Assembly: GCA_037129835.1 (NCBI GenBank)
Contig: JBAXUE010000002.1
Coordinates: forward strand, 66,334-130,333
Length of the DNA: 64,000 nucleotides
Direction of reading: 5' to 3'
DNA from: a bacterium
GTDB lineage: Bacteria > Patescibacteriota > CPR2 > UBA1875 > CAIMLA01
Shown: one piece after another, positions 14,221 to 50,196 of the stretch
Layout: each line of letters opens with the position of its first letter
How positions within the stretch are numbered: position 1 is the stretch's first letter
Made by a program: the position numbers and the translations under genes
The notes under the pieces: generated by a model
Told to the model about the DNA's origin: nothing
Database searches by the model: none
The model's input: the letters and a program-made list of their open reading frames with translations, nothing else

Positions 14221-15708
14221 TCATTGAATTTTTCCGAGAAATTCCCATATCTTGACCATCGCTAGTGTGTCGAGTCCACAGTAGTCCCAGAGGTCTTTTA
14301 GAATTTTCTCTTTTTCGTCTGGATTATTACCATCGAGGACCGCTCCCATCCACAGTCTTTGGGCAGCCAGTCCTTCGGATATTTCTAGGTCTTTGTGTGA
14401 AAGCTCGGGAATAAGTACAGGTAGAACGTGTTTTATTGAAGCACTACCGCCAAATCTAGCGTCCACGTAGTCAAACTCTATAAATGGAGTGATTAGATCG
14501 ATGATTCTCTCATTCAGATTATGATAAAAGGTATGAAACTCGGGCAACATCTCTCCCATATCCCGATTACATCCCTTTTCGAAATCTTCCCACCAGACTA
14601 GTACACTGCCTTTTTTGCCAATATTTTCTGCAAGAGATTGTGATAGTGGTAATACTGGATTGCTATTGTCCTTGTGTAGATATTCGAGATGTCTTACTTC
14701 TGCCCCAGGGCTATCTATAATATGTAGTGAATATTGGAAAGGCACTTGTTGAAACGGTTTATGACCGTCAAAATACGGTATCACACTGCTCATAGTCTCA
14801 TAGTCAAGAAAATATATAGGATACTCTATTGTTGCCAAGAATTGTTTAATATTTTCTTTATTAATAAGCGCTTTATTCTGTTTTAGGGCCTTTATTTGCC
14901 ATCCTTGTTTATCAGAGAGACCAGCGAAATCTTCTGGAACCTCGGCAATCTTCGTGTAACCAGCTTTTTCTAGCTTTCCTATCAGGGTCGCGCTAGGATT
15001 ATAGATATCATAGATACTGCCATCACCGCTTTTTATCCCTGCTAGTAGTTTGTATATTTCTATCCAGTCAGAAGTAGCCGAAAGACCACAGTGTGCAGGT
15101 GAAATATCTGGCATTTTATCTAGCTTGGCAGTTCTAAGAGCTTCTGCGATATTTTCTCTGGCCGCAGGTATTCGTTTTTTTACGGCATCGGTAATATCTG
15201 TGACCGTAGTAATGTCCTCGGGTTTTATTTCTCCTTGTCGAACGAAGTCTTTGTTCACATGAGCTACCATAATGTTGCGTACATGGTATCCCGAGTCCTC
15301 GATCACTATTGTCTGAAATGCCAGATCATGTTCGTGATATACTCGTGGTCCCGTGGAAGATTTGATTTCATATAGATCAATCATATTCTCGTCAACAAAC
15401 TGGATTACGTCAAAAATACAGGTTAGCTCCCCTGCTTCGAAACGACCTTGGAATATAGTTTTAGCGCCAGATTCGATTACCAGTTTTGTTCTACCCGGTA
15501 GAGATAGATACTCTTTGTAGCCGTCCCAGTTTAGCTTCACACCATCTGGAAAAAGCTTCTCGGCGTAGGTTTCAAAACGAAAACCCGCTGCGAATATCGC
15601 TTGAGTAGCCGCGTCGTATGGCGGCAGTTTCTTGGGCTCATTCTTTTTGAGCCAAAGCCAAGCAGGGTGTTTTAAATATAATAAATAATCAGATTTGGAT
15701 AATTGCAT
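14221..15708 (-). CDS. DUF2779-like protein (Cas4/PD-(D/E)XK-type N-domain plus RNase-H-like C-domain)
   Basis: Opening LSKSDYLLYLKHPAWLWLKK and the DLYEIKSS / YFLDYET segments match my recollection of DUF2779. Confidence 0.6.
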   Translation of the reverse strand: MQLSKSDYLLYLKHPAWLWLKKNEPKKLPPYDAATQAIFAAGFRFETYAEKLFPDGVKLNWDGYKEYLSLPGRTKLVIESGAKTIFQGRFEAGELTCIFDVIQFVDENMIDLYEIKSSTGPRVYHEHDLAFQTIVIEDSGYHVRNIMVAHVNKDFVRQGEIKPEDITTVTDITDAVKKRIPAARENIAEALRTAKLDKMPDISPAHCGLSATSDWIEIYKLLAGIKSGDGSIYDIYNPSATLIGKLEKAGYTKIAEVPEDFAGLSDKQGWQIKALKQNKALINKENIKQFLATIEYPIYFLDYETMSSVIPYFDGHKPFQQVPFQYSLHIIDSPGAEVRHLEYLHKDNSNPVLPLSQSLAENIGKKGSVLVWWEDFEKGCNRDMGEMLPEFHTFYHNLNERIIDLITPFIEFDYVDARFGGSASIKHVLPVLIPELSHKDLEISEGLAAQRLWMGAVLDGNNPDEKEKILKDLWDYCGLDTLAMVKIWEFLGKIQ

Positions 15709-15718
15709 ACTCGCCTAT

Positions 15719-15997
15719 CTAGTTGGTAAAGCCAACGTGCTTGGTATTTTCTTCTGCTTGCTCTATCTTAACTCCAAAACCGCTTTCATACTGTTCTATA
15801 TTGGTTTTGAGTGCCTCGTAGAGCCTTTTGGTGTGTCCTGGTGACATTATTATCCTTGAGAGCAACATTCCTTGGTTCTGGAAGATATTAATGAAATCTA
15901 GGGTAAATTCTTCTCTAGTATGTCCGATCATCGCGACATTGGCATAGTTTCCCTTCAGGGTGGCGTCATCGGCTTTTATTTGTACTTGTTGTTCCAT
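15719..15997 (-). CDS. DUF3467-like small protein
   Basis: YANVAMIGHTREEFTLDFINIF resembles the DUF3467 core. SD-bearing 92-aa ORF. Confidence 0.55.
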   Translation of the reverse strand: MEQQVQIKADDATLKGNYANVAMIGHTREEFTLDFINIFQNQGMLLSRIIMSPGHTKRLYEALKTNIEQYESGFGVKIEQAEENTKHVGFTN

Positions 15998-16018
15998 AGT
16001 GTCTCCTTTTCTCTCTTC

Positions 16019-16102
16019 GTCATTCTGAACCGAGTGAAGAATCTAGGATTGTATCTGGATTCCTGCTTACCGCAGGCAAGCTTCTTTCCGACTCAGGATG
16101 AC
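16019..16102. repeat. GTCATYC hairpin-repeat element (two modules in inverted orientation)
   Basis: GTCATTCTGAACCGAGTGAAGAATC at 16019, plus at 16057-16102 the reverse complement of the 46-nt module found at 19816-19861 (43/46 identical). Confidence 0.85.
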
Positions 16103-16122
16103 GATTTGGGGGTGTTAAATTA

Positions 16123-18852
16123 TTATTTTGATACTAATTTCTCTGCTACTAGTTGGGTTATTCTCTTTGGAGGTTTATTTCTAGCTTTAAATGTTTCTTG
16201 AACCAAAAGATAGAATAAAGCGATAAATATTGCTATTGCCCAGGCAGAGAAGTTAAGCGGTGCCATGCCAGCGAATTTCTGGAGAAAAGGAACGTAAATT
16301 AATAAATTTACAAACATAAAAGACACGGCCAGTCCTATCCAGACTCTTTGTGAACCAAGTAGTTTCCATACTGGTTTTCTGGCTGACCGTATAGAAAAAG
16401 CGTTGGCATATTGGCACAGGGCCATGGTGGCATAAGTGACAGTAGTGGCCGCAATATATGTTTCGTTATTCGGAAAAGCACTCCCCCAACGCCAACCATT
16501 TAGATATCCATATATGCAAAATCCCGCCACCGAAAAAACACCCAGCATTATACCACTCCTTACGATGTAGTAGATAGTATCTGTACCAAAGAGGATATCC
16601 TTTTTGTCTCTTGGCGGTTTTGACATCACATCATCCTCTTCTATATCGCCTGCAAGTGCGAGAGCCGGAAAAGCCTCTGCGCAGAGGTCGATTAATAGTA
16701 TTTGGATAACAAAAATCGGAGGCAAGCCGATAACTAGCCCAAAAACAACAGCAGTGAACTCCGCCATATTTGCAGTAAAGACATATTTTGTTGCTTTTTT
16801 GATATTGTCATAGACGATTCTGCCCTCTTTTACCGCCCAAACAATAGAAGAAAAACTGTCGTTCAGCGAAACCATTTCTGCAGCTTCTTTGGTAACATCT
16901 GTTCCTGTCAGCCCCATCGCTACGCCAATATCCGAGGTCTTTAGAGCCGGAGCGTCATTGACGCCATCGCCTGTGACCGAGACGATATTTCCATGTGCTT
17001 GTAGTACTTTCACTAGCCGCAGCTTGTGGATTGGGTCTACCCGAGAGAATATTACATCTCCAGTTTCGATAATCTGATATAGTTCATCGTCTTTCAATTG
17101 ATTTAGTTCATTACCGTCGATGACGCGCGGATCTATGTTCAGCTTGATTCTCTTACCTACGGCTGCTGCTGTCAGGCCATAGTCGCCAGTCGCCATTATT
17201 ATCTTTATTCCAGCTTCTTTAGCGATTCTGACAGTTTCTGCTACATCTTCTCTTGGTGGATCGATAATACCAAGAAGTCCTAAGAAAATCAGGTCAGAAT
17301 CGATTGTACTGCCATCCATAGGCTTATAGGCAGAGGCTATTACTCTCAGCGCATCCTTGGAATATTCGTCATTTGTTTTTTCGATATCTTTTCTATCAGC
17401 TGTAGTTAGTTCGACTGCTTTGCCACCCTTAAGTATTTTTGTACATTTTTGTAAGATAACCGCAGGCGCCCCTTTGACGTATACCGTCTTTTCACCTTTG
17501 TAGTCGACTGCCTTGGCCATGAATTTTCGTTCTGAAGTAAAGGGTATTTCCTCTACACTTTTCGCTTCCCTCTGCATCGTATAAGTATCTAGTCCTGCCT
17601 TTTCTGCTGCCACAAGCAGAGCGATCTCGGTTGAGTCACCGATATAATCTGGTTTGTGATGATTTTTTGTATCGACTTCGGCATTATTGGAAATAGTTAC
17701 AGCTTGAAACAATATATTAGTTTCATCCAGACAGCTTCTGTTGCACAGTTTTCCTTCACGGGTGATTTCCCCGTCGAGACTATATCCCACGCCCTTTATA
17801 TGATAATTTTCGTTATTAAAGTAAATCTCTTTTACGGTCATCTGGTTCTTGGTTAGGGTGCCTGTTTTGTCAGTAATGATGTAGTTTGCCTCACCTAGGG
17901 TTTCCACTGCCGAAAGTCTGCGGATAGCAGCCTTTCTTCTGGTCATTTTTTGGATGCCGATCGCAAGTGCGATAGACACCGTGGCTGGTAAACCCTCAGG
18001 GACAAGAGAAGATGCTACTCCGATGGCAAAACGAAAAGATTCTAGTGCGTCAAAGTGACCCTTTGCTACTGTATCGACTACGAGCAGGATGAGAACGACC
18101 CAGAAGGTTGCTTTGGCTACAGTCTTGGCAATCCGGTCTATCTCTATTTGTAGCGGTGATTTTGATACCTTTTGGGTCGAGGTTATTTTGGCAATTTTAC
18201 CAAAGCTAGTTTCCATTCCGGTGGATACCACCACACCGATACCGTTACCAGAGATTACGTCAGTTCCCATAAATACAGAGCCTGTTACATCGACTACGTT
18301 TCTCTCGTTCTCCTCTGTTACCATCGCTACTTTGGATTGTGTTTCAGATTCTCCTGTAAGTGCTGCATCATTCGTTTCTAACTCATTTGCAGATATTAGC
18401 CGGATGTCTGCTGGTATCTTCATTCCCTCGGAAAGAACAATAATGTCACCGGGTACGATATCCATGGCGTCGATAGTCTGGCGGTCATTGTCTCTGATAA
18501 CGGTTGCAGACTGAGCGACAAATTTCTTAAGAGCGTCTATCGCTTTATCAGCTTTGTATTCTTGGAAAAAACCAATAGTGCTATTGGCAATCACAACTAA
18601 AAAGATGACAATTGCATCTTTAGGTGCTCCTAGAATATATGCGAGACCGGCGGCCGTCAGAAGAACTATCGCTAGAAGGTCAGTGAATTGGACAAGAAAT
18701 TTGACTATATATGGAGTTCGTTTTTGCTGTACTAGCTTATTGTGGCCGTATTTATTGAGACGCGTTGTAACTTCTGCGCTCGAAAGACCTTTGTCAGTCG
18801 TCTTTAGAGTATCTAATACTTTAGTAATATCGTCATAGAGCAATGAATTCAT
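16123..18852 (-). CDS. P2-type cation-transporting P-type ATPase (Ca2+/SERCA-PMCA-like)
   Basis: TGES, PEGLPA, DKTGTLT, TGDGVNDAPAL, and 10-TM topology. Confidence 0.9.
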   Translation of the reverse strand: MNSLLYDDITKVLDTLKTTDKGLSSAEVTTRLNKYGHNKLVQQKRTPYIVKFLVQFTDLLAIVLLTAAGLAYILGAPKDAIVIFLVVIANSTIGFFQEYKADKAIDALKKFVAQSATVIRDNDRQTIDAMDIVPGDIIVLSEGMKIPADIRLISANELETNDAALTGESETQSKVAMVTEENERNVVDVTGSVFMGTDVISGNGIGVVVSTGMETSFGKIAKITSTQKVSKSPLQIEIDRIAKTVAKATFWVVLILLVVDTVAKGHFDALESFRFAIGVASSLVPEGLPATVSIALAIGIQKMTRRKAAIRRLSAVETLGEANYIITDKTGTLTKNQMTVKEIYFNNENYHIKGVGYSLDGEITREGKLCNRSCLDETNILFQAVTISNNAEVDTKNHHKPDYIGDSTEIALLVAAEKAGLDTYTMQREAKSVEEIPFTSERKFMAKAVDYKGEKTVYVKGAPAVILQKCTKILKGGKAVELTTADRKDIEKTNDEYSKDALRVIASAYKPMDGSTIDSDLIFLGLLGIIDPPREDVAETVRIAKEAGIKIIMATGDYGLTAAAVGKRIKLNIDPRVIDGNELNQLKDDELYQIIETGDVIFSRVDPIHKLRLVKVLQAHGNIVSVTGDGVNDAPALKTSDIGVAMGLTGTDVTKEAAEMVSLNDSFSSIVWAVKEGRIVYDNIKKATKYVFTANMAEFTAVVFGLVIGLPPIFVIQILLIDLCAEAFPALALAGDIEEDDVMSKPPRDKKDILFGTDTIYYIVRSGIMLGVFSVAGFCIYGYLNGWRWGSAFPNNETYIAATTVTYATMALCQYANAFSIRSARKPVWKLLGSQRVWIGLAVSFMFVNLLIYVPFLQKFAGMAPLNFSAWAIAIFIALFYLLVQETFKARNKPPKRITQLVAEKLVSK

Positions 18853-18967
18853 AAATATATTTTATGCTATATATAGATAATAATGAAGAGAAATAAATAC
18901 AAATGGAGAAGGTCCGCGCCGGGAAGACGCTTTATATAGCTACCTTCTCGTTGCGGACCTCTTGGAC

Positions 18968-19342
18968 CTAGTCTTCGACCTCATCGATCCCGAGCATCGC
19001 TCTCGCGACTTCGATATCGGGTGCCAGGTCGAAGTTGTTGGTGTACTTCACCAACTTCTTAGAGACCTTCTCGTCCTCGGGGACTACGATCACAAACGGA
19101 ATGTGATCATTCATCAGGTACCGACCAAAGCTGTAGATACGGCCGATAGCCGCGCTACAAAGCTTGGTGACCATTGCGAGGTCGAGAATGACTCCGGCCT
19201 TGCGGGCCTTTATCAGAGTCTTGTCGAACTCGAGTCGGAGAACCGGCTCGACACTGTCGTCGAGATTTCCTCCGAGCTTCAGGATCACGGCCTTGTGGCC
19301 GTTACCTGCTTCGAACTTTTCGATACTGTGTACACAATGCAT
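18968..19342 (-). CDS. STAS-domain protein (anti-sigma-antagonist fold), in G+C-rich islet
   Basis: 124 aa with the pattern VILKLGGNLD...EPVLRLEFDKTLIKARKAGVILDLAMVTKLCSAAIG typical of SpoIIAA/STAS. G+C clearly above its neighbours. Confidence 0.6.
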   Translation of the reverse strand: MHCVHSIEKFEAGNGHKAVILKLGGNLDDSVEPVLRLEFDKTLIKARKAGVILDLAMVTKLCSAAIGRIYSFGRYLMNDHIPFVIVVPEDEKVSKKLVKYTNNFDLAPDIEVARAMLGIDEVED

Positions 19343-19351
19343 ATATCCCCC

Positions 19352-19666
19352 TCAGTCGGTTTCTAGTATTGCCGGGTTTTCGGAAAAGAACCATGAACCC
19401 CACAGCTCTCTCTTGACACCTACTTGCAGCGAATGTACCCACATTCCCCCTATGGGGATTTCGAAAGAGGGAAAGAAATCGAGTTCGATCTCTCCCTGCC
19501 AAACCACTTTCTCACGGTCAACGATATCGTAGATGACAAGTGAGTCACCGGTCTGGAGCAAGTGCAGGCCATCATAGCCGCCTTGCCTTCCTTCTTCTTC
19601 GAAGGCCCAGAAACCTCCTTCGGTTCCGGTCTCGAAGTAGAAATGTAACGTACCCACAAGTTTCAT
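19352..19666 (-). CDS. hypothetical protein (104 aa), in G+C-rich islet
   Basis: ATG at 19666 is preceded by GGGAGGTGA. The longer listed ORF (to 19768) lacks an SD. There is a 9-nt gap to the STAS gene. Confidence 0.55.
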   Translation of the reverse strand: MKLVGTLHFYFETGTEGGFWAFEEEGRQGGYDGLHLLQTGDSLVIYDIVDREKVVWQGEIELDFFPSFEIPIGGMWVHSLQVGVKRELWGSWFFSENPAILETD

Positions 19667-19759
19667 GTGGCTCACCTCCCAAACGATGTTATCGTGATTG
19701 AGACAAAGAGGATTATACAACATAATGAGTGTTCTGTAAAGATAAACATATACTCCCCA

Positions 19760-19861
19760 GTCATCCATGGCCCGCTTTCGTCATCCTTGCGAACGCGAGG
19801 GTCTCTTTTGGCAACGTCATCCTGAGTCGAAACGAAGCTTGCCTGCGGTAAGCAGGGATCC
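19760..19861 (+). repeat. three tandem GTCATCC modules
   Basis: GTCATCC starts at 19760, 19780 and 19816. The last module contains the hairpin CCTGCGGTAAGCAGG. Confidence 0.85.
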
Positions 19862-20234
19862 ATGTCCACTCTCCTTATCGTTCGAATTCTAATGAGAACT
19901 ACAGATACAGGTTATATGTAGTTTTCATAGGATCTACGTAATCCAACCATCAGTTCGAAAAGAAAGAGAGTAAAGTAACGAAGTTATAATAAATAACTTC
20001 CGGTATCGGCTTGTTGTTATTTATTATATTTGAGCTACTGCAACGAATGATACTTTAAAGAATCTGTTAGGTTGGGCTTTTTGCACCACTTTTATTAAAA
20101 AAGTGGCATATATTATAATATAACGTTTAAAAGATATTCGCTAAAGTCGTAATTGCTCGACCTCGAAGATAGTCGAGTACACGGTACCAAGGCGATTTTT
20201 CATTGGGATTAACGCTTAAATATACCGCCCCTTT

Positions 20235-20330
20235 GTCATCCCTGGTCGCACTTGTCCTCCAGTAGCTTGTTAGCGAAGTAGGAACCCCAGTCTGCCCGAG
20301 CCGTACGCTCGTGTCGGCCAGGGGGATCTC
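20235..20330 (+). repeat. GTCATCCCTGG...CCAGGGGGATCTC module with ~55-nt insert
   Basis: Same ends as the short modules at 21275 and 34750-34779. The internal AGTAGC..GCGAAG..AAC resembles 21328-21343. Confidence 0.75.
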
Positions 20331-20331
20331 T

Positions 20332-20619
20332 CTAGTTCCCTTTTATAAATTCCAAAAGTTTCCTTTTAGTTTCCTCTGGGTCATTCGTATATATAAAGAT
20401 ATACTGTCTCGTCGTATTCCCACGGACGACGCATTTAAACCCACTATCGATGTCGAGAAGCTTGATGTTGCGTATTCCCCTGCCGATAACCTTGATTTCA
20501 CCGAGAGAAATCTTACTCACTTCTGGATATTTGGATGCAGCATCGACAAAATCCTCCGCAGCATCGATGATGGTGGTGTGACTGCCGGCATATTTGCTGC
20601 CAGAGCGGTGCGGACTCAT
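20332..20619 (-). CDS. hypothetical protein (95 aa)
   Basis: Its start overlaps the upstream peptidase stop by 4 nt (ATGA). No family assigned with confidence. Confidence 0.55.
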   Translation of the reverse strand: MSPHRSGSKYAGSHTTIIDAAEDFVDAASKYPEVSKISLGEIKVIGRGIRNIKLLDIDSGFKCVVRGNTTRQYIFIYTNDPEETKRKLLEFIKGN

Positions 20620-21254
20620 TTCTTATTCTCTCTGGCCTTCTCCCACCGTATTTCTAGCTCTTGTTTTACTTCAGTCTCGAAATCCAAAATTGATATGCCG
20701 TATACTTTATTAAAATCCTTTGCAAAGCCCTTTTCTGTCATATCTGGGCCCATATATTTGATCATTTCTAGTAGCTTATCTTTACCGTAGTCTCGGACTA
20801 ACTTGTTTACCATCAGGATTCCCCAGCGATATGTTTGCTGATCACAGCTAGAATAATGCTTTGCACAGACATTTTCGTCAGTTTCTACTGGGAGATATGT
20901 TTTCTGTCCCGCCATGTGTTCGGCTAGTCCCTCGACAAACCAAATAGGCTCCCCGTTGTATCTTCCGACGATATGATCAAAGTACCAGTGGCTCATCTCG
21001 TGGTGGACTACTTTCCAAAAATCCCCCTTTTTATGCGGGGTGATGTCTTCCAAAACACTTTCGTCGATAAAGGCCAGTCCCCTGCTATGCGTAGTCGCCC
21101 TGACCCAGTCCTCTGTTTTCCTACCTGTGAATTCGTCCATCTCAGCCCTAGTAAATAGAAACTTTATCGGCGGATCAGGGACTTTATCAGCATCGGTGAG
21201 CTCGAAGAACTCTCGACACAGTTTTTGTATTTCTTTTATCTTCTTTGTATTCAT
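20616..21254 (-). CDS. Peptidase_MA-like HExxH zinc-metallopeptidase-fold protein
   Basis: VVHHEMSHWYF followed about 20 aa later by WFVEGLAEH (gluzincin-type third ligand). No signal peptide. Paralog of 56359..56931. Confidence 0.65.
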   Translation of the reverse strand: MNTKKIKEIQKLCREFFELTDADKVPDPPIKFLFTRAEMDEFTGRKTEDWVRATTHSRGLAFIDESVLEDITPHKKGDFWKVVHHEMSHWYFDHIVGRYNGEPIWFVEGLAEHMAGQKTYLPVETDENVCAKHYSSCDQQTYRWGILMVNKLVRDYGKDKLLEMIKYMGPDMTEKGFAKDFNKVYGISILDFETEVKQELEIRWEKARENKK

Positions 21255-21274
21255 AATTACTTTTCCTCTCCTGT

Positions 21275-21343
21275 GTCATCCCTGGCCACAAACCAGGGAT
21301 CTCCTGCTTATTGTTCGAAGATCGGCAGTAGCCGAAGCGAGAA
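21275..21343 (+). repeat. GTCATCCCTGGCCACAAACCAGGGATCTC hairpin module plus tail
   Basis: 6-bp stem CCCTGG/CCAGGG. Near-identical copy in reverse orientation at 34750-34779. Confidence 0.85.
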
Positions 21344-21369
21344 CTAAAAAATAGCCTCTTGGTACTAGT

Positions 21370-22356
21370 TTATACCTCGCTAATTACGTCAAAGCCCTTG
21401 AAACTACCAGTTATGGCAAGGCCAATTATTTTGCCGTTTGTTAGGTGTTTTTCTCGCATTTTTCCAGCGATTTCATTAATAGTTGCGCCAGAACCGACGG
21501 CATCATCTATTATCAAGATATTTTTGTATTTACTGTTATCTTCTACCACGAATGTTTTTCTAGCATTTTCTATACGGTCCTCAAGTTTATTGAGAGTTTT
21601 CTGGGGTACTATCACTTGAGTTTTTATCTTTACGATACCTATCGTTCGAATGTGCAGATTTAGCTCTTTCTCCAGCTCTTTCATAAACTGAAGTTCACGT
21701 TTCACGGTAGGCTGAACAAAAGCCACCCCGTCTACATTCTTGTCATGTATCAGCTTCATAATCTGCGGTTTGATACTATCCACCAGATCATCGATGAGCT
21801 CCCTATTTTGGCTTTGTTTAGAATATAGTAGTAGTTGACCCAGGCGAGTTTTACCAAATCTTTCGATACTATAAAAATCGAGATAATATAGGTTGTCTAC
21901 ATTCACTTGTTCGAAACTAGTTCGAAGCTTGTCTATGCCAGATATCAAACCATTTTTTGTGTATTTCAGATACTTTTCGAGTGTTTTGATATACTCCACA
22001 GCTGTTTTTGTGATGTCTAGATGGTTTTTCTGAGTCCAGTATGCGAAACCCTCCCATCCAGTTTTCATTTCGCCAGCAGGCGTAATAATGAGGTAGTTTT
22101 TGTCTATAGTATTGATTATTTTTCTATCAACATTAAGACCGTCTAGGGTTTTGCCAGCCTCACCAGACTCACTTAGTGAATAATACACCTTGGGAGGCGT
22201 GCCACTCTTTACTAGGGCACCATTTTCTATCAGATTCTTGAGCTGTTTGTGAATAGCCTGTTCTGATATATCAAACTCAACAACCAATTCCTTGGGAGTT
22301 GCTTGTTTGTGTTCTGAGATGTATCTGATTATATTTTTTGAGGTATCTGTTTTCAT
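21370..22356 (-). CDS. winged-HTH plus ComF/GntX-like phosphoribosyltransferase-domain protein
   Basis: N-terminal IIRYISEHKQATPKELVVEFDISEQAIHKQLKNLIENGAL (wHTH). C-terminal PRTase signature NILIIDDAVGSGATINEI, preceded by ComF-like FVQPT...Q..L....R..N spacing. Confidence 0.65.
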   Translation of the reverse strand: MKTDTSKNIIRYISEHKQATPKELVVEFDISEQAIHKQLKNLIENGALVKSGTPPKVYYSLSESGEAGKTLDGLNVDRKIINTIDKNYLIITPAGEMKTGWEGFAYWTQKNHLDITKTAVEYIKTLEKYLKYTKNGLISGIDKLRTSFEQVNVDNLYYLDFYSIERFGKTRLGQLLLYSKQSQNRELIDDLVDSIKPQIMKLIHDKNVDGVAFVQPTVKRELQFMKELEKELNLHIRTIGIVKIKTQVIVPQKTLNKLEDRIENARKTFVVEDNSKYKNILIIDDAVGSGATINEIAGKMREKHLTNGKIIGLAITGSFKGFDVISEV

Positions 22357-24514: not shown

Positions 24515-24757
24515 TTAATCAAAAAGTATAAAAGGATTCATCTCCGCCGGTGTTTTCCAGCGTATTTTATACTTCTTCCTAAGTATTTCTTTTTTCTTAT
24601 GCCAAAAGGTATGGCAATATCCCAAATCACCTTCTTTGATTGGCGAATCTTTCAACGCATCCGTGACTTCATTATTGATTTTTGCGAAAATATCACGATA
24701 CCTCGGGTCTCGCTCTATTGGATCGTTAGCTATGTCGTCATCGTACATATTAATCAT
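24515..24757 (-). CDS. hypothetical protein (80 aa)
   Basis: Intact ORF in the co-directional string. LGYCHTFWHKKKEILRKKYKIRWKTPAEMNP looks like a conserved core. Family unknown. Confidence 0.5.
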   Translation of the reverse strand: MINMYDDDIANDPIERDPRYRDIFAKINNEVTDALKDSPIKEGDLGYCHTFWHKKKEILRKKYKIRWKTPAEMNPFILFD

Positions 24758-24768
24758 CTTTGTTCTTC

Positions 24769-25110
24769 TTATTCCGGAGCTTGAATTGGCTTCGCTTCTC
24801 GTCTTTTCTTTATGTAGCTAACTAGGTTAATTATATCTACAACGAATGACCCAAGCAAAATCACTACGAAAAAGAATAGACCAAGTGCATAAGAGATGGC
24901 ATCACCCCAGGCCTGGTTTGGTAATGTGCGTATATAGGTTCCGAATAGAAAAAATCCGACGGCTACTACGACGCTAGTTATCTTTAGACCTATTGATAGA
25001 TCTCCGAGTTTTTTCCCGGTCTTGATATAGATAATGATCGAAGGTGCGACCATAGCCGCGATAGCAAGCAAGAGTATGAATAGCCCAGTAATTAGACCCA
25101 TAAGCACCAC
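24769..25110 (-). CDS. small integral membrane protein (3 predicted TM)
   Basis: Three hydrophobic stretches. Gap of 11 nt to the next gene. Confidence 0.55.
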   Translation of the reverse strand: MVLMGLITGLFILLLAIAAMVAPSIIIYIKTGKKLGDLSIGLKITSVVVAVGFFLFGTYIRTLPNQAWGDAISYALGLFFFVVILLGSFVVDIINLVSYIKKRREAKPIQAPE

Positions 25111-25146
25111 CCTCCAGACGCGATACGTAACGATTTTGTTATGATA

Positions 25147-26121
25147 TTACTTTTGTACATGTTCCTCTCCTTTTGCATGAATTATATTTTCCATATTATC
25201 ATACAGATAAACAAAATATTTTTCTATTTCATTCATTTTATTTGGTAACATATTTTTTGTAAGAGCTGCCGATTCTGCAAAAAACTCTTCGAAATATTCT
25301 GCATATTCAAGAATAAAGTCGTCAGTGAACTCTCCCTTAATTATACATTCATCATAGAGTGGTTTGATCGCCTTTACTCTGGTCTTTAGATATGGGGTAA
25401 AGGGATTATCTATTAGATATCCCATCCCTGGTGGGTTGTAATACATATTGCCTTCGTCATCTTTGATAAAGAAGAACTGTCCGAATTCGGTATTTGCTAG
25501 TATTCCTCGTTCTAGTTGAGCGCCAGTCCCGTTTTCTGTAGCGTAAAGATTTTTAAAATAAAAATGTCCGATTTCATGTGCAAGTAGATATTCGAGTAGC
25601 GCCTCTTCTTTGTTATCTGCTTCTTTTACTACATCTGGCATCTCGTATGGATAGTCATAGGTATCAAATAGCTTTATATCGCCAAAGTGCTCGCTTTCTC
25701 TGTCGGAAATGGCATGTGCCCGTACCCTCAACCACTCATCACCCTCAGGTAGCTCGTTGTTTGCTTTGGCTTTTTCGTATTCTTCCCTGTTATAAAGCTT
25801 CTTTTCATTCTCTATTCCTGGGGTGTAGACATACATTATTACATTATCATAGATTATTTTTGATATACCGACTTTTTTAAAATCCTCTAATTCGTAATTT
25901 CTCGCGATGAACTCCAAGGCGCTCTCTCCTAGATTCTTGTTTTCTTCAAATCCTTCGAAACCGAGATATGCTCGAAAATCATCTAGCTTCTCCTTTGATA
26001 TTTCATCATGAGTTTCCGTATAGACACTACTAGTAGGCGCACTTTCTTTAAGTTTTGTTCTTTCCCACAGCTTACTAGCCTCACGCTCAGCAGGTCCTAT
26101 TGGTAATGGTATATGTTCCAC
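25147..26121 (-). CDS. hypothetical HExxH protein (324 aa)
   Basis: YLLAHEIGHFYF motif. Acidic, with no signal peptide or TM. Confidence 0.55.
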   Translation of the reverse strand: MEHIPLPIGPAEREASKLWERTKLKESAPTSSVYTETHDEISKEKLDDFRAYLGFEGFEENKNLGESALEFIARNYELEDFKKVGISKIIYDNVIMYVYTPGIENEKKLYNREEYEKAKANNELPEGDEWLRVRAHAISDRESEHFGDIKLFDTYDYPYEMPDVVKEADNKEEALLEYLLAHEIGHFYFKNLYATENGTGAQLERGILANTEFGQFFFIKDDEGNMYYNPPGMGYLIDNPFTPYLKTRVKAIKPLYDECIIKGEFTDDFILEYAEYFEEFFAESAALTKNMLPNKMNEIEKYFVYLYDNMENIIHAKGEEHVQK

Positions 26122-26140
26122 TATTATCCTTTCTTTGTAT

Positions 26141-26812
26141 TTATTTCTCTTTCGTCACCAAGAACGGAAAAACTCTGTTCATTTCATCGTTCCGAAGGAT
26201 AAATGCCGCCTCGAGGAAAGTATACAGTAAATCTTTTGTATTTTTCAGTACATCAGCACTACAAAAGACGACGAAATCAGCTTCGTTTATCTCTGAGGGC
26301 GATTGGATGTGGATCTTGTTTCTCAAGTTCTTGAGCTGTTTCAAATCATTTCGATAAAAGGCAAATGACAGCCCGAATGTCTGCTCCTGCGCAGACTTAT
26401 AGAGTAAGCTCTTAAAATCATGGATATCGTCATAGCTGGCACCTGTTTCTTTGTGCTGGATATACAGAATAGACTCTATTATTAGTGCCGATATCAGAAC
26501 AAATGTCTTCACATTCTGCCCATAGAGAGAGCTGGTGAGATATAGCTGCTTGGTGCATTCGTCTAGATAGTGAAGATATTGGAGATTATAGGCGATGTTA
26601 CTAAAAGCAGCATACTTTGGGTCATCATCAGAAAATTCGTAATCTATCAGCCGTGGGAATATAGTACTGCGATAGAAATCTATTGAGTTTGGCAGAAACT
26701 TGTTCGAACCCTCCTCTTTGGAACAAACCCGACACAAGATATTAGGCTTGTCTGGATTGTACAAGTCCTGCTTTACAAAGCCTGAATTGCTGTGTTGTTC
26801 TGTTTTAGTCAT
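26141..26812 (-). CDS. hypothetical alpha-helical protein (223 aa)
   Basis: Intact ORF flanking the DUF262-HNH genes. Contains LKNLRNKIHIQ (see rejected HEPN idea). Confidence 0.5.
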   Translation of the reverse strand: MTKTEQHSNSGFVKQDLYNPDKPNILCRVCSKEEGSNKFLPNSIDFYRSTIFPRLIDYEFSDDDPKYAAFSNIAYNLQYLHYLDECTKQLYLTSSLYGQNVKTFVLISALIIESILYIQHKETGASYDDIHDFKSLLYKSAQEQTFGLSFAFYRNDLKQLKNLRNKIHIQSPSEINEADFVVFCSADVLKNTKDLLYTFLEAAFILRNDEMNRVFPFLVTKEK

Positions 26813-26873
26813 TTTTCCCTTTTATAAAAGAATACATTGTTCTATCTTACTTTGTAAAAAATTATTAACTAAA

Positions 26874-28229
26874 CTAGTCTCTGCCACCCCTTTGTCTATT
26901 ACAATATCGGTGGACTAATCTGGCGTTTGATAGCTTGGTTTCTCCACCTCGCCAGTAAAACTCAATATGATCAACCTCAGAATCGTCTAAAACACGTATT
27001 TTTTGACCACATATTTTACAGGTTGAATCAGTGTCAAAAAGTTGCTTTTTCTCGTCGTGTGAATAGTTTCTTGTCTGTGACTTGGAATAATCTACGATTT
27101 TCCTCAAAGATTCTAGCCATTTCTCAAATCTGTATTGCACATTTTCTGGCTTATCTGTTGATGACTTCAAGGAATCTTCAAATTTCTTGACAGCTGTCAT
27201 TAAGTGTAAAAGTTCTTCGCGAATAGAATCAAGGTGAGGGATAATTTCGTTTTTTTGATACATCGTGAAACCCCACATTACGATGTCAAATAAGCCTTTG
27301 TTTATTTTTGTATTTTCCCACTTTCCGTTTGAGTCAGATTCTTCGCCTACAACAAACCTACGAAAAGCATTGTCACCAAATACTGAGCGAGTTAGGTCAA
27401 CAGATTTTTTAAAAACCTCACGAAGTTCTTTTGCTTTTTCTTCATTTAGATTTTGGTTATTATGCATTTCTTGATTTAGAAACTGTCTCATGGGTGCTTT
27501 GTATTTTAAGTATGAGTTATTATAAAAAGCGAAAAATCGTAATAAAAGCTCTCTATCAATCATTCTTATGGACATAGCTGGTGATTTTAATAATGTTTGA
27601 TATTCTTTATTTTCGGCAAGCTCGATTAGTAAGTCGTTATATTTTCCACGGTAAATACAGTTTCTGAGTTCCTGGTCGTTCAGCTTCACTGCGCCAGTAT
27701 TTAGTCTTTCGAAAACCTCAAATCTAACATTGATATCAGAATCCTTTTTGATTCTGATAAATGGTATAAGATAAGAATCAACTTTTCGCTGTGTTATTTT
27801 GTCTAGTTCCTTAAATGATTTCCTGTTTAGTCCTGTCAAAACCTTTAATCCCGAAAGGGCAAATTTTTCGTGCTTGTCTTGAAAGTACCCGTCCTTAAAA
27901 GAAAAGATAGAAATTAGTCTTTGTTGCCCGTCTATTACTGATTGGGTACCGTCATCTTCTTCGGCAGTGTATATTACTGGTATCGGGACTCCCAAGAGAA
28001 TAGATTCTATCAGTCTACTAGCTTTGCTTTTATCCCAGACATATCCTCTTTGAAAGTATGGTCTTACATCAAGTTCCCCTGCCTTGTAATCAGAATATAA
28101 GTCTTTTATGGCTCTACTGGGGTTGTCAAAGGTAATTCTTCTTTCATCCTCAGGTATATCAAAAACCAGTGGTTCGTTGTCATTATTGTCTTCTTCAAGA
28201 ATAACGTCATTATTATCTATTACCGTCAT
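26874..28229 (-). CDS. DUF262 (ParB-like NTPase) plus C-terminal HNH nuclease, GmrSD-like
   Basis: RPYFQRGYVW...VIDGQQRLISI (DUF262 DGQQR motif). C-terminus CKICGQ...VDHIEFYWRGGETKLSNARLVHRYCN (HNH). Confidence 0.8.
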   Translation of the reverse strand: MTVIDNNDVILEEDNNDNEPLVFDIPEDERRITFDNPSRAIKDLYSDYKAGELDVRPYFQRGYVWDKSKASRLIESILLGVPIPVIYTAEEDDGTQSVIDGQQRLISIFSFKDGYFQDKHEKFALSGLKVLTGLNRKSFKELDKITQRKVDSYLIPFIRIKKDSDINVRFEVFERLNTGAVKLNDQELRNCIYRGKYNDLLIELAENKEYQTLLKSPAMSIRMIDRELLLRFFAFYNNSYLKYKAPMRQFLNQEMHNNQNLNEEKAKELREVFKKSVDLTRSVFGDNAFRRFVVGEESDSNGKWENTKINKGLFDIVMWGFTMYQKNEIIPHLDSIREELLHLMTAVKKFEDSLKSSTDKPENVQYRFEKWLESLRKIVDYSKSQTRNYSHDEKKQLFDTDSTCKICGQKIRVLDDSEVDHIEFYWRGGETKLSNARLVHRYCNRQRGGRD

Positions 28230-28285
28230 AATTCTCCTTTACTTTGATCTATCGTTTTTGCTTATCAAGTTTTTTCATTGGTTCG

Positions 28286-29449
28286 CTATTTATTTCCCTT
28301 GGCACGGTTATGTGTTTTACAAAGCATCTCACAGTTATTGATATCTGTGGCGCCACCTTTACTCCATGCTGTAACATGGTCAGCATCCATTTCGGTAAGA
28401 CTCCAGATTTTTGTCTTGTTGGCGTCGTGACCGATTACGCAATTCGGACAATTTGAAATGCCTTTAGATTTAGCGGTCGTAGTTTGTGACGAATATACCG
28501 CTTTTTTAGTTGCCTCATCAAAAACACGAACTTCAAGTAGTTTCTTTTCATTAGACCCACCTAGAATATATTCAAATATTCCCTTTCGATTTTTTATGTA
28601 TGGGTCTCCATAAAGCTTTTGTACGGCCAATGACACTTTTGCAGGATCATAGGCTTTTGTATGAAATTTTTTATAAAGTCGACCCCAATCCAGGCCTCGC
28701 ATTTCACTTTCAACATCTATAAATACACCAGAAACCCATTCTATTACGCTTTTAAAATATGCTTTTAACTCAGTGATATTGTTATCAAAGCGGTGACGAC
28801 TCATATATTCGCCGTTATTACCACAACTAATCCAGTCTAAGGCTCTCTCTAGAAATTCCTGTCTGTTGGCACTGCCAGTTACATAAGCACTCCATTTTTG
28901 AATGTTGGCATTTTGACTATTACTGAATTCCTCTTTACCAAGTGTGACAAATGGACCAGAATAAACCGCATTTAATAGTTCTTGATTATTTAGCGGTACA
29001 CCGGCAATGTTTATGGTTTTGAACCACTCTTTTATTTCACTTTCTTCGCCCTCGCATTCGTATATAAGAAGCTCAGCGTTCATGATTTTAGCCTGCTTAT
29101 CTGAAGCAATTCCACTGAAGTATTGTTCCATGCCGTTTTCGTCTTTTATGGCAAATTTGTTATAAACGAATCGTCCGATACTAGTGATACGTTGTTGTCC
29201 GTCCAATACTTCTAAGTTGTCAGTGCTCACTTTGTTAAAATATATTAAGCCCAGCGGATAGTCTTTGAGTAATGAGTCAATGACCGCGACGTCTTTTTTA
29301 CCATCAGCATAGATGTAGTTACGTTGATACTCTGGCTGAATAGTGAGCTTGCCAGAGAGTCCGAACAAACCCTTGCCTTCATGCTGGTTATACACAAATC
29401 CTTCACATATATTTCTTACGGTTATGTTAGTTACTAAAGTAGTTTTCAT
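28286..29449 (-). CDS. DUF262 (ParB-like NTPase) plus C-terminal HNH nuclease
   Basis: [11 protein letters not shown]...[12 protein letters not shown]-terminus CPNC...[26 protein letters not shown]. Its start overlaps the methyltransferase stop by 4 nt. Confidence 0.8.
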
Positions 29450-30648
29450 GCTATACCTTTCTTGTGTTTGATTAAAATCCTAGCGAATGGAACCACAACA
29501 GTTTCATCTTTTATCATATATAAATCACCGTTCACCGTTCCTCTTTTTTGCACTTCTTTCCGATACTTTTTATGCTCAGGTTTATACGGTTTGACTCCGA
29601 TGGATAAGCCCAGGTTTGCTATTCCCAAACCAATAATATCAAATTGTTCAGGAGAATATTTGTCAAGGAAACTAATTGGCACGCCCATAATACCCTTAAA
29701 GTCTCCAGGAATATGTTTAACGAAAGGAACTTCTATTGCATTAAAATTATCATAATTATCAAAAGATCTTTTAGTGCCAAATTTTATAACGTCTGACAAT
29801 TTCATTAATGGTAAGAATTCGTGAAGCCTTCCGTGGTCAAGATTAGTAAACCAGCGAACACCTTGGACTCTCGTGATGTAAACTTTCTTACCATTTTCAT
29901 CCGTCCGTATTTCGCGTACTTGCTCTAGATTGGCAATATCTTCTGGTATTTCATAAAACATTGCTCCACCATTCACTTTATGATTATTGCCAAGCCAAAT
30001 CTTGTTATCCTTAATTAATGGAAAGACTTCTTTATAAGTAATAGCGTTCATACTACCAATTATTAAGAACTTTTTTTTGTACTCAATAAGTTGTTTTAAG
30101 TACTCGCGGAACAAACTGAAAGGCGGGTTAGTTACCACTATATCAGCCTGCTTTAGTAGCTCAACACACTCGTTGCTCCGAAAATCTCCGGCTGCGTATT
30201 TATCATCGCCAAGTAAAAGCGAATAAGCATTATTGTCATGTTCTAAAAGCCATTTCACATCATTAAGGTTGGTTATGCCATCTTTATTAAGGTCTGAAAC
30301 CTCATTGATCTCAATTTTAAATGCTTTTTTATTTTTTCGATTAGAAAGTGTCTTATTTTTACCCATTTCTTCGAAACCCGGTATTTGTATCTGTGTTTGT
30401 ACAATCGGCGAACCAACGTAGCTTGTCGTTATCAACTTTTTTAAGCCAAATTCCTTAAATTTATTTGCAAAATACTTGAAGAAATTACTTTCAAATGGGT
30501 CATCGCAGTTGCAATAGACTATCTTGCCGCGAAAAACATCAGGATCGTAATCAATGTAGGCTTGGATTTCCTTCTGAATATCTTGATATTGAGTATAAAA
30601 CTCGTCGTTTTTAGTCTTTTTTGCGTTATGTAAATTTTTTTGTGCCAT
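29446..30648 (-). CDS. EcoRI-methylase-family N6-adenine DNA methyltransferase
   Basis: N-terminus [25 protein letters not shown] is typical of that family. Catalytic motif [11 protein letters not shown]. Confidence 0.8.
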
Positions 30649-30660
30649 TTAAAACCTTAT

Positions 30661-31128
30661 TTATTTTTCAAAGCAAATTGGATTAAATATCTTTTCAGGA
30701 AAATCGTTATCTCCAATTTTATATTTTAATTCACCGTTTGTTCCATGTACTGAATATTTTTCTCGATTGCGCTTTGACACAGAAATTGATTTGACTCCGG
30801 ACTGGCTAGGCCTTAACAACCTCTCAATTTCGTCATAGTTTAAGCAACAAACTCCTGCATCGTAACATACAAGTAGGACAAAAACCTTCTCAAACTTTGA
30901 TTTTAGCTCTAATAGTTTTTCGAGATGATTCTCCGAAAATGTAAAGCTCCAGGGGATTAACCGACTCTCAGTATATTTAACATATAAGCCACTTTCTCTG
31001 AGCTGAGAGAGAATCTTAAAACTAGAATTGTCATCATCAACATAATCACTAACACCAAGACATCTTTGGTCTTGAATTATTTTTAGTAAAGCTGCCCCGT
31101 AATATAGTTGATATTTAAAATTTGCCAT
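30661..31128 (-). CDS. hypothetical protein (155 aa) between the Z1 and methyltransferase genes
   Basis: Gaps of 6 nt and 12 nt to its neighbours. Has D/E...K-containing beta-strand segments (YVKYTES, VFVLLVCYD), but no secure nuclease motif. Confidence 0.55.
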   Translation of the reverse strand: MANFKYQLYYGAALLKIIQDQRCLGVSDYVDDDNSSFKILSQLRESGLYVKYTESRLIPWSFTFSENHLEKLLELKSKFEKVFVLLVCYDAGVCCLNYDEIERLLRPSQSGVKSISVSKRNREKYSVHGTNGELKYKIGDNDFPEKIFNPICFEK

Positions 31129-31134
31129 AATAAT

Positions 31135-33018
31135 TTATCTTAGCCTATAGTTTGCCTTTTTAAGGCTATCTTTAAAATAGTAAACAAATCTACACTTTCC
31201 TGCCTCGTTTCTGATCAACATAATATGGTGCTTTGCATTGGGAAAAGCGACCATTTCTGTACCACCAAAAACACCCCTACTTCTGTATAAAAAGTCCTTA
31301 TATTCAAGGTCATCTGTTTTTGAAACCATTCTTATTGGATGGAATGCTATGTCCTTGTCTGCAGTCATTCCACTGTATACAATAAAATTAATTAGAAATA
31401 GAGGCACCACACTGCCACCGTAAAGCCGGTTAACTTCTTTTAGCTTTTGGATATTACTTATTCCTTTTTTACTAATAATATCTGAAAAAATGCTAGCGTA
31501 ATCAAACATAGGAAAATACATTTCGTTTTTGTCAGTTAATATATTCTTCTTGTCGATACTAGAACTAGAGGCGGGCTTAACTCTTTGGCTTGAAATCCAA
31601 ACTGGTGCTGCACCCTCGTCATTGCTTTTTAATGATTTTAAAGATAAATCATGAAAAATAAAACAACGGTGCCAGTCCTCGAAAAGTGATTTTGGTATTG
31701 AGAGTTCAAAGAAGTCTTTGTATTTGCCTCTACTGCCGAACATTCTAGCTCTTTGGATATAAGTGTCTTGTTGAATCCTGTGTTTAGCAGTTCGTGTGAA
31801 GAACATGCCCAAAAGATTCTTTATTGTTAAGCCCCGGGAAATTATATTTCCACCAATTATTATTGTAAAAAGAGCTGGTGCATTAGTTGGGTCTTCTTCC
31901 ATTTTATTATTTGAGTTAATAACATAAACTTTTTTCTTATTAACATAATCTTTGACAAATGTTGTCACTTCTTTTGCTGCTATATCACCAAATCTTTCTT
32001 CTGCAATACTGTGTATTATTCCAAGGTAACGTTCCCATTTGGGACCCTTATTTGTATCTGCCAGTGCGTCAAAAAAATTATCTACAATTTTTTTATCTCT
32101 TTCGTGTTCACTTTTAATGCCACTTGTATGAATAATAAAAGCAAAATTAACATCATCATTATTCGCATTTTGTTCTACGAGCTTTTCCTTGTACTCGGGA
32201 TTTATATTTAAATAAGAAGCATTAACTAAAAAGCTTGCTAAAGCTTCATGTAAATATGATGGGTCATCTCCATTCTCAGGAAGTATATTCACCATGTATT
32301 CAACTTCGGTTATTTTTTCTAGATTAATTGGAAAAAAAAAGTCTTTGCCTACATAATTTTTATGAGAATCAAAAAATACCCATTCTTCAGATAAATTATC
32401 AAAAGTATTGTTAAGATCTAGTCGTGCTGGAGTGGCTGTTACCCCAACGTAGGTGCCGTCTCTTCGAAGTAATTTGCCGATTTCGTTATTAATTGCCGTT
32501 ACTTCATCTTTATTTATTTTAGAATTTGGGCTGGCATAATCAGCCTCGTCATCAATTATTATTAAACCACTTCTATTTCTTAGTTTTTCGTTTAAATTTG
32601 TTAAATTGCGGATATTTTTCTTTGAAAAAATTATAACCTGCCCATCATTTAAGTCTTCTTCAAGAAAAGCCCTGCTAGACATGGTATCTGGTGTAGGGTC
32701 GATACCTGAACTAGTAAATCTTTCGAGATTTTGAAGTTCAAGCTTTTTATTGTCATTCATGAGAATAACAATAGTGTTGTTGCCAATATCAAGTAATTTT
32801 GCTGTAAGCGATATCATCATTTCGGTTTTGCCACTTTGTGGCTCACCGTAAATCACAAATGATGTTATACCCTTTTGAATTTTTTCTACTGAATCTGAAA
32901 CAGCGTTTTCAATTTGAAAAGTATCAATACCCTTTTTATCTCTAAGGAAATTAATTCTTTTCTCATATCGGCTGTTTCTTCTATTTTCTGAGTCTCTATA
33001 ATCATCTGGATTAAACAT
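31135..33018 (-). CDS. Z1-domain protein with SF2-helicase-like ATPase core
   Basis: GEPQSGKTE (Walker A), IIIDDEADYAS (DEAD-like), VGVTATPARL, GGNIISRGLTIKNLLGMFFTR, DTYIQRARMFGSRGKY. SD GGAGAG before the ATG. Confidence 0.8.
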   Translation of the reverse strand: MFNPDDYRDSENRRNSRYEKRINFLRDKKGIDTFQIENAVSDSVEKIQKGITSFVIYGEPQSGKTEMMISLTAKLLDIGNNTIVILMNDNKKLELQNLERFTSSGIDPTPDTMSSRAFLEEDLNDGQVIIFSKKNIRNLTNLNEKLRNRSGLIIIDDEADYASPNSKINKDEVTAINNEIGKLLRRDGTYVGVTATPARLDLNNTFDNLSEEWVFFDSHKNYVGKDFFFPINLEKITEVEYMVNILPENGDDPSYLHEALASFLVNASYLNINPEYKEKLVEQNANNDDVNFAFIIHTSGIKSEHERDKKIVDNFFDALADTNKGPKWERYLGIIHSIAEERFGDIAAKEVTTFVKDYVNKKKVYVINSNNKMEEDPTNAPALFTIIIGGNIISRGLTIKNLLGMFFTRTAKHRIQQDTYIQRARMFGSRGKYKDFFELSIPKSLFEDWHRCFIFHDLSLKSLKSNDEGAAPVWISSQRVKPASSSSIDKKNILTDKNEMYFPMFDYASIFSDIISKKGISNIQKLKEVNRLYGGSVVPLFLINFIVYSGMTADKDIAFHPIRMVSKTDDLEYKDFLYRSRGVFGGTEMVAFPNAKHHIMLIRNEAGKCRFVYYFKDSLKKANYRLR

Positions 33019-33044
33019 AGCTCTCCAAATTTAATATATATTAT

Positions 33045-33073
33045 ATTCTACTCTCCTTTTGTGCTTATCGCAA
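33045..33073 (-). promoter_or_regulatory. putative sigma-70 promoter of the Z1 operon
   Basis: On the - strand: TTGCGA-17 nt-TAGAAT, about 27 nt upstream of the Z1 ATG. The -35 overlaps the small palindrome TGCTT..AAGCA. Confidence 0.4.
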
Positions 33074-33109
33074 GCATAAATTCGGTTTGACGGCTCTAGG
33101 CATCGGATA

Positions 33110-34702: not shown

Positions 34703-34779
34703 GGAGGTCATCCTTACGAAAGTAAGGATGACCTCCGGAGGGTAAGAAAGAGATCCCTGGGTTTGTGACCAGGGATGAC
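34703..34779. repeat. two GTCATCC hairpin modules
   Basis: GGAGGTCATCCTTACGAAAGTAAGGATGACCTCC (14-bp stem) and GAGATCCCTGGGTTTGTGACCAGGGATGAC (reverse copy of the 21275 module). Confidence 0.9.
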
Positions 34780-50191: not shown

Positions 50192-50196
50192 CCCCT

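Follow-up and report, generated by a model that had tools for sequence, protein, structure and literature searches.

Single-domain STAS proteins of the SpoIIAA/RsbV type (PF01740, TIGR00377; structures 1auz, 1th8, 1sbo and 4hyl) are about 120 aa long and have a phospho-acceptor position, which we take to be S58 in SpoIIAA of Bacillus subtilis, whereas the STAS domains associated with transporters, such as MlaB of the Mla ABC transporter (7ch8) and those of SulP/SLC26, are not phosphorylated. Islets acquired by horizontal gene transfer (HGT), in turn, are marked by an abrupt shift in codon usage and in G+C at third codon positions (GC3), by small orphan genes and by a variable neighbourhood. 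Here we describe a short G+C-rich islet that resembles each of these in part, and that consists of a gene for a 124-aa STAS protein and a gene for a 104-aa orphan protein. It lies in a stretch of 64,000 nt of contig JBAXUE010000002.1 (positions 66,334 to 130,333), which is called the window throughout and in whose own numbering all positions are given. The first-pass annotation of this stretch took the composition of the islet as a sign of recent horizontal acquisition. Our analyses indicate, with a probability of roughly 70%, that the islet is instead a long-standing, fast-evolving two-gene locus in a small AT-rich genome, and not a fresh import. The two genes are:

18968-19342, minus strand: 124-aa single-domain STAS gene, GC3 0.70, identified by homology, composition and orthologues
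19352-19666, minus strand: 104-aa orphan gene, taken from the list of open reading frames (ORFs)

The compositional anomaly itself is pronounced. The window has a mean G+C content of 39.0%; positions 18901-19650 are the richest 750-bp stretch in the whole 64 kb, at 52.1%, and positions 18961-19700 reach 51.6% (z = 3.6), a value attained by 0.1% of windows. In bins of 100 bp the G+C fraction steps from 0.21 (18801-18900) to 0.55 (18901-19000), and a G+C-rich run, GACCTCATCGATCCCGAGCATCGCTCTCGCGACTTCG, is located at about 18977-19013. Among the 57 ORFs of the window, which have a mean GC3 of 0.381 (sd 0.083), the 124-aa gene ranks first (0.704) and the 104-aa gene third (0.552); the sudden jump in base composition from which the first-pass annotation argued is thereby borne out. 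The excess is mainly synonymous, G+C at second codon positions (GC2) being ordinary: C makes up 0.64 of NNY codons in the islet against 0.36 in the comparison, and G makes up 0.77 of NNR codons against 0.29, while ATA is avoided and ATC favoured. The breaks in composition fall on gene boundaries. A second G+C-rich spot occurs at 49776-50631 (50.1% over 750 bp), comprising a 120-aa ORF (49829-50191, GC3 0.61), which is unannotated in the public gene call, and a 144-aa gene, neither of which has a family match.

What decides between ancestry and import is the occurrence of the STAS gene in related genomes. Orthologues are found in the conserved backbone of six of them (loci L052, L053, L055, L057, L059 and L060), which share the gene order EngA-Pth-DprA-TopA ... 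MetK ... PIF1-MgsA-M23 peptidase-ArsP_2-sigma-r4/HARE-HTH protein-DUF8128, and whose housekeeping neighbours are 48-88% identical to the genes of the window. Within this backbone the STAS gene follows topA in L053 and L055, precedes metK in L052 and stands between metK and the ArsP_2 gene in L060. In all six the gene is richer in G+C than its surroundings (gene G+C 0.51-0.57 and GC3 0.60-0.77, in loci of 0.45-0.51), with the same shift towards C- and G-ending codons as in the window. The orthologues are only 30-50% identical and have kept this signature, which is therefore a maintained property and not the scar of a recent transfer. Divergence of the gene is out of proportion to that of its neighbours: between L053 and L055, TopA is 88%, DprA 83% and Pth 80% identical and the adjacent STAS protein 34%, and between L053 and L060 the corresponding values are 84% for ArsP_2 and 42% for STAS. 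The STAS gene is thus either very fast-evolving or has been laterally replaced within the clade at a fixed position.

The possibility that both genes came recently from a donor lineage richer in G+C has to be weighed against this distribution. In its favour, no other part of the window deviates as strongly in composition as the islet (GC3 0.70 and 0.55 against 0.38, with C- and G-ending codons both raised), both of its proteins are near-orphans, and defence genes abound in a variable neighbourhood. However, HGT-acquired islets are not expected to recur with an equally atypical composition in the same backbone of related genomes, as the STAS gene does in six, nor to retain a G+C excess that outlasts saturating divergence. 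The comparison of both proteins by sequence and profile searches, which was to have revealed a donor, yielded no lineage outside the clade: the best matches among 1.84 billion representative proteins are in-clade proteins, and all searches returned sequences of the clade or of the same population. No integrase or transposase is found among the Pfam hits of the loci covering the window, no tRNA lies nearby, and the 104-aa gene has no viral relatives. Moreover, the islet is present in every strain variant, with alleles of the 104-aa gene that are much older than the strains. Islands are characteristically absent from relatives; here the STAS gene is present in six, and the 104-aa gene alone is lacking at the loci that we examined. 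Recent acquisition is accordingly very unlikely for the pair and, as far as the STAS gene is concerned, already largely refuted, although an older acquisition of the 104-aa gene alone is conceivable.

Around the islet, divergence between strains of the same population is strikingly uneven. The gene on its downstream side is:

16123-18852, minus strand: gene for a 909-aa P2-type (Ca2+-ATPase-like) cation pump, of ordinary composition (GC3 0.39), identified by family match

Between the window strain and that of contig L001, synonymous divergence per site (dS) is 0.19 for the DUF2779 gene, 0.21 for DUF3467 and 0.31 for DUF2103, 0.000 for the ATPase gene and 0.05 for the STAS gene. Across strains, dS of the ATPase gene is 0.000-0.002 over 910 codons, with flanking genes at 0.19-0.31. 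The near-identical block extends from about 16000 to 19300 (about 3.3 kb), taking in the ATPase gene, the spacer and most of the STAS gene, and looks like a recent gene-specific sweep or a recombination block. Coalescence depth shifts about tenfold twice within 5 kb, among dS values of 0, of 0.2-0.3 and of saturation, the last being those of the 104-aa gene.

The islet is not an artefact of assembly. A chimera of two organisms' DNA would be suggested by the abrupt change in composition only; six contigs from five independent assemblies run across the junction at 18.9 kb, and six contigs from six assemblies across that at 19.9 kb (the spanning assemblies being ERZ27300174, Logan SRR7053572, ERZ27299960, ERZ27300140, ERZ27300155 and two JGI metagenomes), and changes in composition coincide with gene boundaries. 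Mis-assembly, which the first-pass annotation had kept as an alternative, is excluded by these separate contigs, and a chimeric origin has a vanishingly small probability.

The 104-aa gene is a genuine protein-coding orphan under purifying selection that is confined to one lake population. Its product is predicted to be all-beta, with no signal peptide evident by eye. Among 5.8 billion proteins it forms two clusters only, to which contig L008 adds a third allele; searches of GTDB genomes and of IMG/VR recovered no relative, and a scan of JGI metagenomes gave contigs of the same series only. Neither the protein nor a profile of the three alleles matches an entry of Pfam, NCBIfam, PHROGs, PADLOC or PDB, and in a Foldseek search with the AlphaFold2 model, which is unusable at a predicted local distance difference test score (pLDDT) of 47, no match had an E-value under 0.46. 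Identity among the three alleles is 55-70%, dN/dS (dN being non-synonymous divergence per site) is 0.15-0.18, and dS is saturated; the proportion of synonymous differences (pS) is 0.63-0.79 and dS at least 1.4 in the three pairs, and the differences span the entire coding sequence (CDS), indels included. We also considered the gene as the target of a diversity-generating retroelement and rejected this: no reverse transcriptase is present among the Pfam hits, no repeat copy lies within 15500-21500, variation is gene-wide, and synonymous sites are saturated.

No locus of a relative that we examined carries the 104-aa gene, and in all five relatives in which the gene upstream of STAS is visible the 104-aa gene does not precede it. 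In L052 the STAS gene is a single gene, bounded by its own upstream terminator and promoter. The claim that a lone STAS gene is unusual is not supported by these loci. Given the apparent translational coupling of the two genes, the 104-aa protein is probably a lineage-specific partner or modulator of the STAS protein, a proposal that we make with low confidence because no 104-aa gene precedes STAS in the relatives whose upstream side can be seen.

A stronger form of partnership would make the pair a toxin-antitoxin-like or defence/counter-defence module, with the 104-aa protein as its variable partner. In favour of this are the small size and tight coupling of the two genes, the hyper-divergence seen among the alleles of one partner, and the position of the pair about 2 kb from a gene of the HTH-phosphoribosyltransferase (HTH-PRTase) type matching PsyrT and about 7 kb from a GmrSD/methylase/Z1 cluster. 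Yet neither gene has a PADLOC, Pfam or PHROG match at a meaningful E-value, the pairing is not obligate, given the five relatives just described, and a gene-averaged dN/dS of 0.15-0.2 reflects purifying and not positive selection. We consider such a module improbable.

Read from the sequence, the islet is in its simplest interpretation a self-contained bicistronic operon, transcribed from the minus strand. In addition to the two genes, its elements are:

19712-19740, minus strand: promoter-like site of the sigma-70 type ahead of the 104-aa gene, TTTACA-17 nt-TATAAT, with 11 of 12 positions matching
19667-19705, minus strand: conserved 5' untranslated region (UTR), about 40 nt long, which can form an interrupted hairpin of 11 bp; the 3' arm of this hairpin covers the first bases of the Shine-Dalgarno (SD) sequence GGGAGGTG
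19343-19351, minus strand: 9-nt spacer containing the SD of the STAS gene (GGGGGA), directly 3' of the TGA of the 104-aa gene, as read from the sequence
18913-18960, minus strand: long hairpin AGGTCCGC/GCGGACCT followed by a U-rich tract (fold z = -2.5)

Both hexamers of the promoter-like site are invariant across the three allele groups, in which the CDS that follows is diverged by about 28%. Hexamers, UTR and SD together are near-invariant in all three, even in L008, where the sequence further upstream is unrelated. The UTR hairpin contains one compensatory pair (U-A, U-G or C-G), seen in three sequences only, which lends it weak support. The SD-like GGGAGGTG precedes the ATG of the 104-aa gene at 19666, and GGGGGA that of the STAS gene at 19342; the two ORFs are in the same frame and separated by 9 nt, so arranged that the stop codon of the first is followed by GGGGGATAT and then by the ATG of the second, which suggests that their translation may be coupled. 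The hairpin downstream of the STAS gene has an outer stem of 9 bp and an inner stem, and the 123-nt region around it folds better than shuffled sequences. It is 100% conserved in L001; the copy in L004 has five differing positions, all in the loop or the inner stem, and an intact outer stem. It is a probable terminator of the two-gene operon. In these respects (the close spacing of the pair, its strong SD sites and the downstream hairpin) the first-pass annotation described the locus correctly. Rfam has no family at the gathering threshold anywhere in the window, and only two chance-level matches (E > 0.4) at 18700-20400.

Why such a locus should be G+C-rich is a separate question from where it came from. 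G+C-richness of small genes is a trait wider than the islet: at L052, L053 and L055 many small unannotated genes have a G+C content of 0.55-0.61, next to housekeeping genes of 0.40-0.46, the STAS family alone being common to the genomes and the others being genome-specific orphans. Within the window GC3 decreases with gene length (Spearman -0.48, p = 1.6e-4). We infer that the richness of the islet is maintained by codon-usage selection in a strongly expressed operon, or else by GC-biased gene conversion (gBGC) at a recombination hot spot.

The first of these processes, translational selection for preferred C- and G-ending codons in a very highly expressed operon, is a tentative possibility. 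It agrees with the near-consensus promoter and the strength of both SD sites, with the avoidance of ATA and the preference for ATC and for NNC over NNT, with the persistence of the bias in orthologues despite saturating divergence, and with the generally higher GC3 of short genes. Against it, G-ending codons rise as much as C-ending ones, which is more like a general shift in G+C. The second process, gBGC as a by-product of frequent allele exchange, is doubtful in our estimation. Gene conversion of this kind reportedly occurs in bacteria, and at this locus recombination boundaries are sharp within 5 kb (dS of 0.000-0.002 over the 2.7-kb ATPase gene, a saturated 104-aa gene and a background of 0.2-0.3), STAS divergence is decoupled from that of its neighbours across the clade, and the excess affects synonymous sites and G and C alike. 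The ATPase gene, however, lies inside the recombined block and has an ordinary GC3 of 0.39.

Under the reading that we prefer, that of a long-standing and fast-evolving locus, the operon would run in the order promoter, 5' UTR, 104-aa gene, 9 nt, 124-aa STAS gene and hairpin terminator. The STAS gene would have occupied this part of the chromosome in the clade for a long time, with G+C-rich synonymous codons as a conserved property of the gene family, and the family would either evolve far faster than its neighbours or swap alleles within the clade. The 104-aa gene would be a later, lineage-specific addition, whose old alleles may have been kept, or exchanged by recombination through conserved flanks, and the ATPase-STAS block would have swept recently through the strains. 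Three deep alleles that are bounded by a conserved promoter and UTR on one side and by a near-identical block on the other fit either recombination-mediated exchange or balancing selection.

Several points weigh against this reading. The STAS tree is incongruent with those of the neighbouring genes, and lateral replacement within the clade, which is itself a form of HGT, is inseparable from fast vertical evolution. The sample comprises seven genomes with the STAS gene and three 104-aa alleles; the window contains no ribosomal-protein or EF-Tu genes that could serve as a reference for codon bias; and AlphaFold2 models are unusable for both proteins (pLDDT 36 and 47). The host genome is probably Saccharibacteria-like, within the candidate phyla radiation (CPR), a placement that consists of one 73%-identical match of the ATPase to a Saccharibacteria metagenome-assembled genome together with CPR-typical gene content.

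A more far-reaching version of the same idea is that both genes belong to an undescribed class of small, G+C-rich, hyper-divergent 'allele-cassette' genes of Saccharibacteria-like epibionts, whose alleles would persist over very long periods at fixed chromosomal positions and be shuffled by recombination via conserved flanks, with the promoter and UTR on one side and a conserved gene on the other. We regard this as a rather remote prospect. Were it true, a frequency-dependent interaction with host or phage might be involved, STAS could act as a phosphorylation-independent switch, and the conserved G+C-richness would be a signature of gBGC and not of foreign origin.

The identity of the 124-aa protein requires comment, as it cannot be recognised from the single sequence. 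On its own it has no Pfam STAS match even at E <= 10, scores 21.4 bits (E = 1.7e-4) against TIGR00377, under the cut-off of 53.45, and finds as its best PDB match a SpoIIAA-like protein at E = 0.086; a word-indexed search of 5.8 billion proteins returned the protein itself only. An exhaustive phmmer/HMMER search of the 1.84 billion representative proteins gave 15 matches at E <= 1e-3, about ten of them full-length (about 121 aa) and 27-49% identical. Two alignments were made from these, one of the window protein with 11 relatives at that threshold, three canonical members included (A3), and one of the core subfamily only (A4). PF01740 is detected in 10 of the 12 members of A3. The A4 profile matches SpoIIAA-like 4hyl at E = 5.5e-7, and the A3 profile matches 4hyl, 1sbo and 1th8 at full length (profile positions 17-120) with E-values from 2.9e-14 to 8e-11. 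Transitive, profile-based homology thus supports the assignment of the protein to STAS; the call in the first-pass annotation was right, by way of the family profile only, since the protein itself falls below the Pfam and NCBIfam cut-offs. The secondary-structure order of the single-sequence AlphaFold2 model (pLDDT 36) fits a SpoIIAA-like fold and is unreliable.

Compared with SpoIIAA/RsbV, the protein is alike in size, in its collinear match (profile positions 17-120 against residues 13-115 of 4hyl), in the pattern ...G.LD... / VILDL..V..(x)..G and in having Ser at the phospho-acceptor position. It differs in falling below curated cut-offs, and its subfamily has conserved features of its own, namely an N-terminus MH..H(S/G) and the motifs LR.EFDKTL and R.GGV(I/V).DL. 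Its profile places it in the STAS superfamily as a new and divergent member, within a rare subfamily restricted to the clade. Literature searches on STAS in Saccharibacteria found nothing, and a broader search gave no directly relevant paper.

The context of the phospho-acceptor is also different. The Ser aligned to SpoIIAA S58 sits in LCSAA(IG) and not in DSSG; in the closest relatives this column is occupied by G, E, P, K or M, and D-S-S/C is kept solely by the distant members P0010, P0011, P0013 and P0016. A phosphorylatable DS(S/T)G context is not conserved in the subfamily, and neither a HATPase_c kinase nor a PP2C phosphatase occurs among the precomputed Pfam hits for the genes called at the loci that cover the window, or at those of the relatives. 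These two observations together suggest that the protein may be a phosphorylation-independent module, that is, a small binding or regulatory module outside the classical phosphorylation cycle. We do not assign it the role of a classical phospho-regulated anti-sigma antagonist for the same reasons, LCSAA replacing DSSG and kinase and phosphatase genes being absent from the loci examined. The STAS gene had been described as having neither a kinase or anti-sigma partner nor a sigma factor in the window. The first part stands as regards kinase and phosphatase genes, and the second is right in part only, as a 366-aa protein encoded at 6453-7553 on the minus strand has sigma-70 region 4 (residues 36-90), without regions 2 and 3, together with a HARE-HTH domain resembling that of the RNA polymerase delta subunit (residues 237-308). 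Synteny of this protein, the sole candidate for a cognate sigma factor, with ArsP_2 and a DUF8128/TrwB-like ATPase is seen in the relatives, and in L053 it lies 2.3 kb from the STAS gene.

The position of the STAS gene next to that of a cation pump invites comparison with transporter STAS domains, from which a conserved phospho-site is likewise absent. The 124-aa gene adjoins the upstream side of the P-type ATPase gene, and its product has a weak match to MlaB (7ch8_K), at E = 0.52 with the sequence alone and 4.3e-5 with profile A3. A functional link between the STAS protein and the Ca2+-ATPase-like pump, by analogy with MlaB and SLC26 pairings of STAS and transporter, is possible. It differs from those systems in that the adjacency is found in this lineage only, the neighbours in relatives being topA, metK, ddl, and ArsP_2-family and short-chain dehydrogenase genes, and in that the terminator-like hairpin stands between the STAS gene and the downstream ATPase gene. 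The ATPase gene is itself without a recognisable SD (18853-18900) and has a TAAAAT box about 7 nt ahead of its ATG; its mRNA may be leaderless.

Upstream of the operon are small repeated elements, one of which has a counterpart beyond the ATPase gene:

19759-19871, plus strand: three G+C-rich GTCATCC hairpin modules, the last (19815-19871) forming one arm of a 57-nt inverted repeat
16047-16103, minus strand: second arm of the same 57-nt inverted repeat (88% complementary), shortly beyond the 3' end of the ATPase gene

The three GTCATCC modules reported upstream of the gene pair were recovered, with sites at 19760, 19780 and 19816; about 3.2 occurrences per strand are expected in the entire 64 kb. 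They are short intergenic hairpins built on GTCATCC...GGGATC, of the form ATCC-stem-loop-stem-GGAT, and they vary among strains. Related modules are found in further intergenic spacers (16047-16103, 20225-20330, 21265-21306 and 34704-34780); the module does not occur in viral contigs and has no Rfam match. The 57-nt inverted repeat pair encloses the trio of ATPase, STAS and 104-aa genes, and we asked whether it marks the termini of a mobile element. This was rejected, as it encloses an ATPase gene of normal composition, matches no compositional or population boundary, does not bound the identical block, and resembles the other dispersed hairpin modules. Beyond the modules, positions 19916-20323 form an AT-rich spacer of 408 bp with a 24-nt inverted repeat (19974-20039), in place of which L001-L004 have about 190 bp.

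The locus illustrates that a sharp anomaly in G+C and codon usage can be passed on stably within a gene family and is not necessarily a sign of recent transfer, so that islands called from composition in CPR genomes call for caution. What it adds is a rare STAS subfamily, restricted to the clade and lacking the classical phospho-switch, as well as a true orphan gene whose alleles in a single population are unusually old. Its three coalescence depths within 5 kb are relevant to the part that recombination and selection play in structuring ultra-small bacterial populations. No new mechanism emerges from it, and current understanding is unchanged unless the functional link proposed for allele cassettes is shown.

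The wider neighbourhood includes genes of a defensive character. Positions 21370-22356 (minus strand) encode a 328-aa protein with winged-helix and phosphoribosyltransferase domains, which matches PsyrT in PADLOC (E = 4.7e-20) as well as models of retron type III-A PRTase effectors. Encoded about 2 kb from the islet, it is a possible defence effector. Further along, positions 24700-33100 hold a cluster resembling a defence island, with two GmrSD_N+HNH genes, an EcoRI-type methylase and a ResIII/SWI2_SNF2/Z1 helicase.

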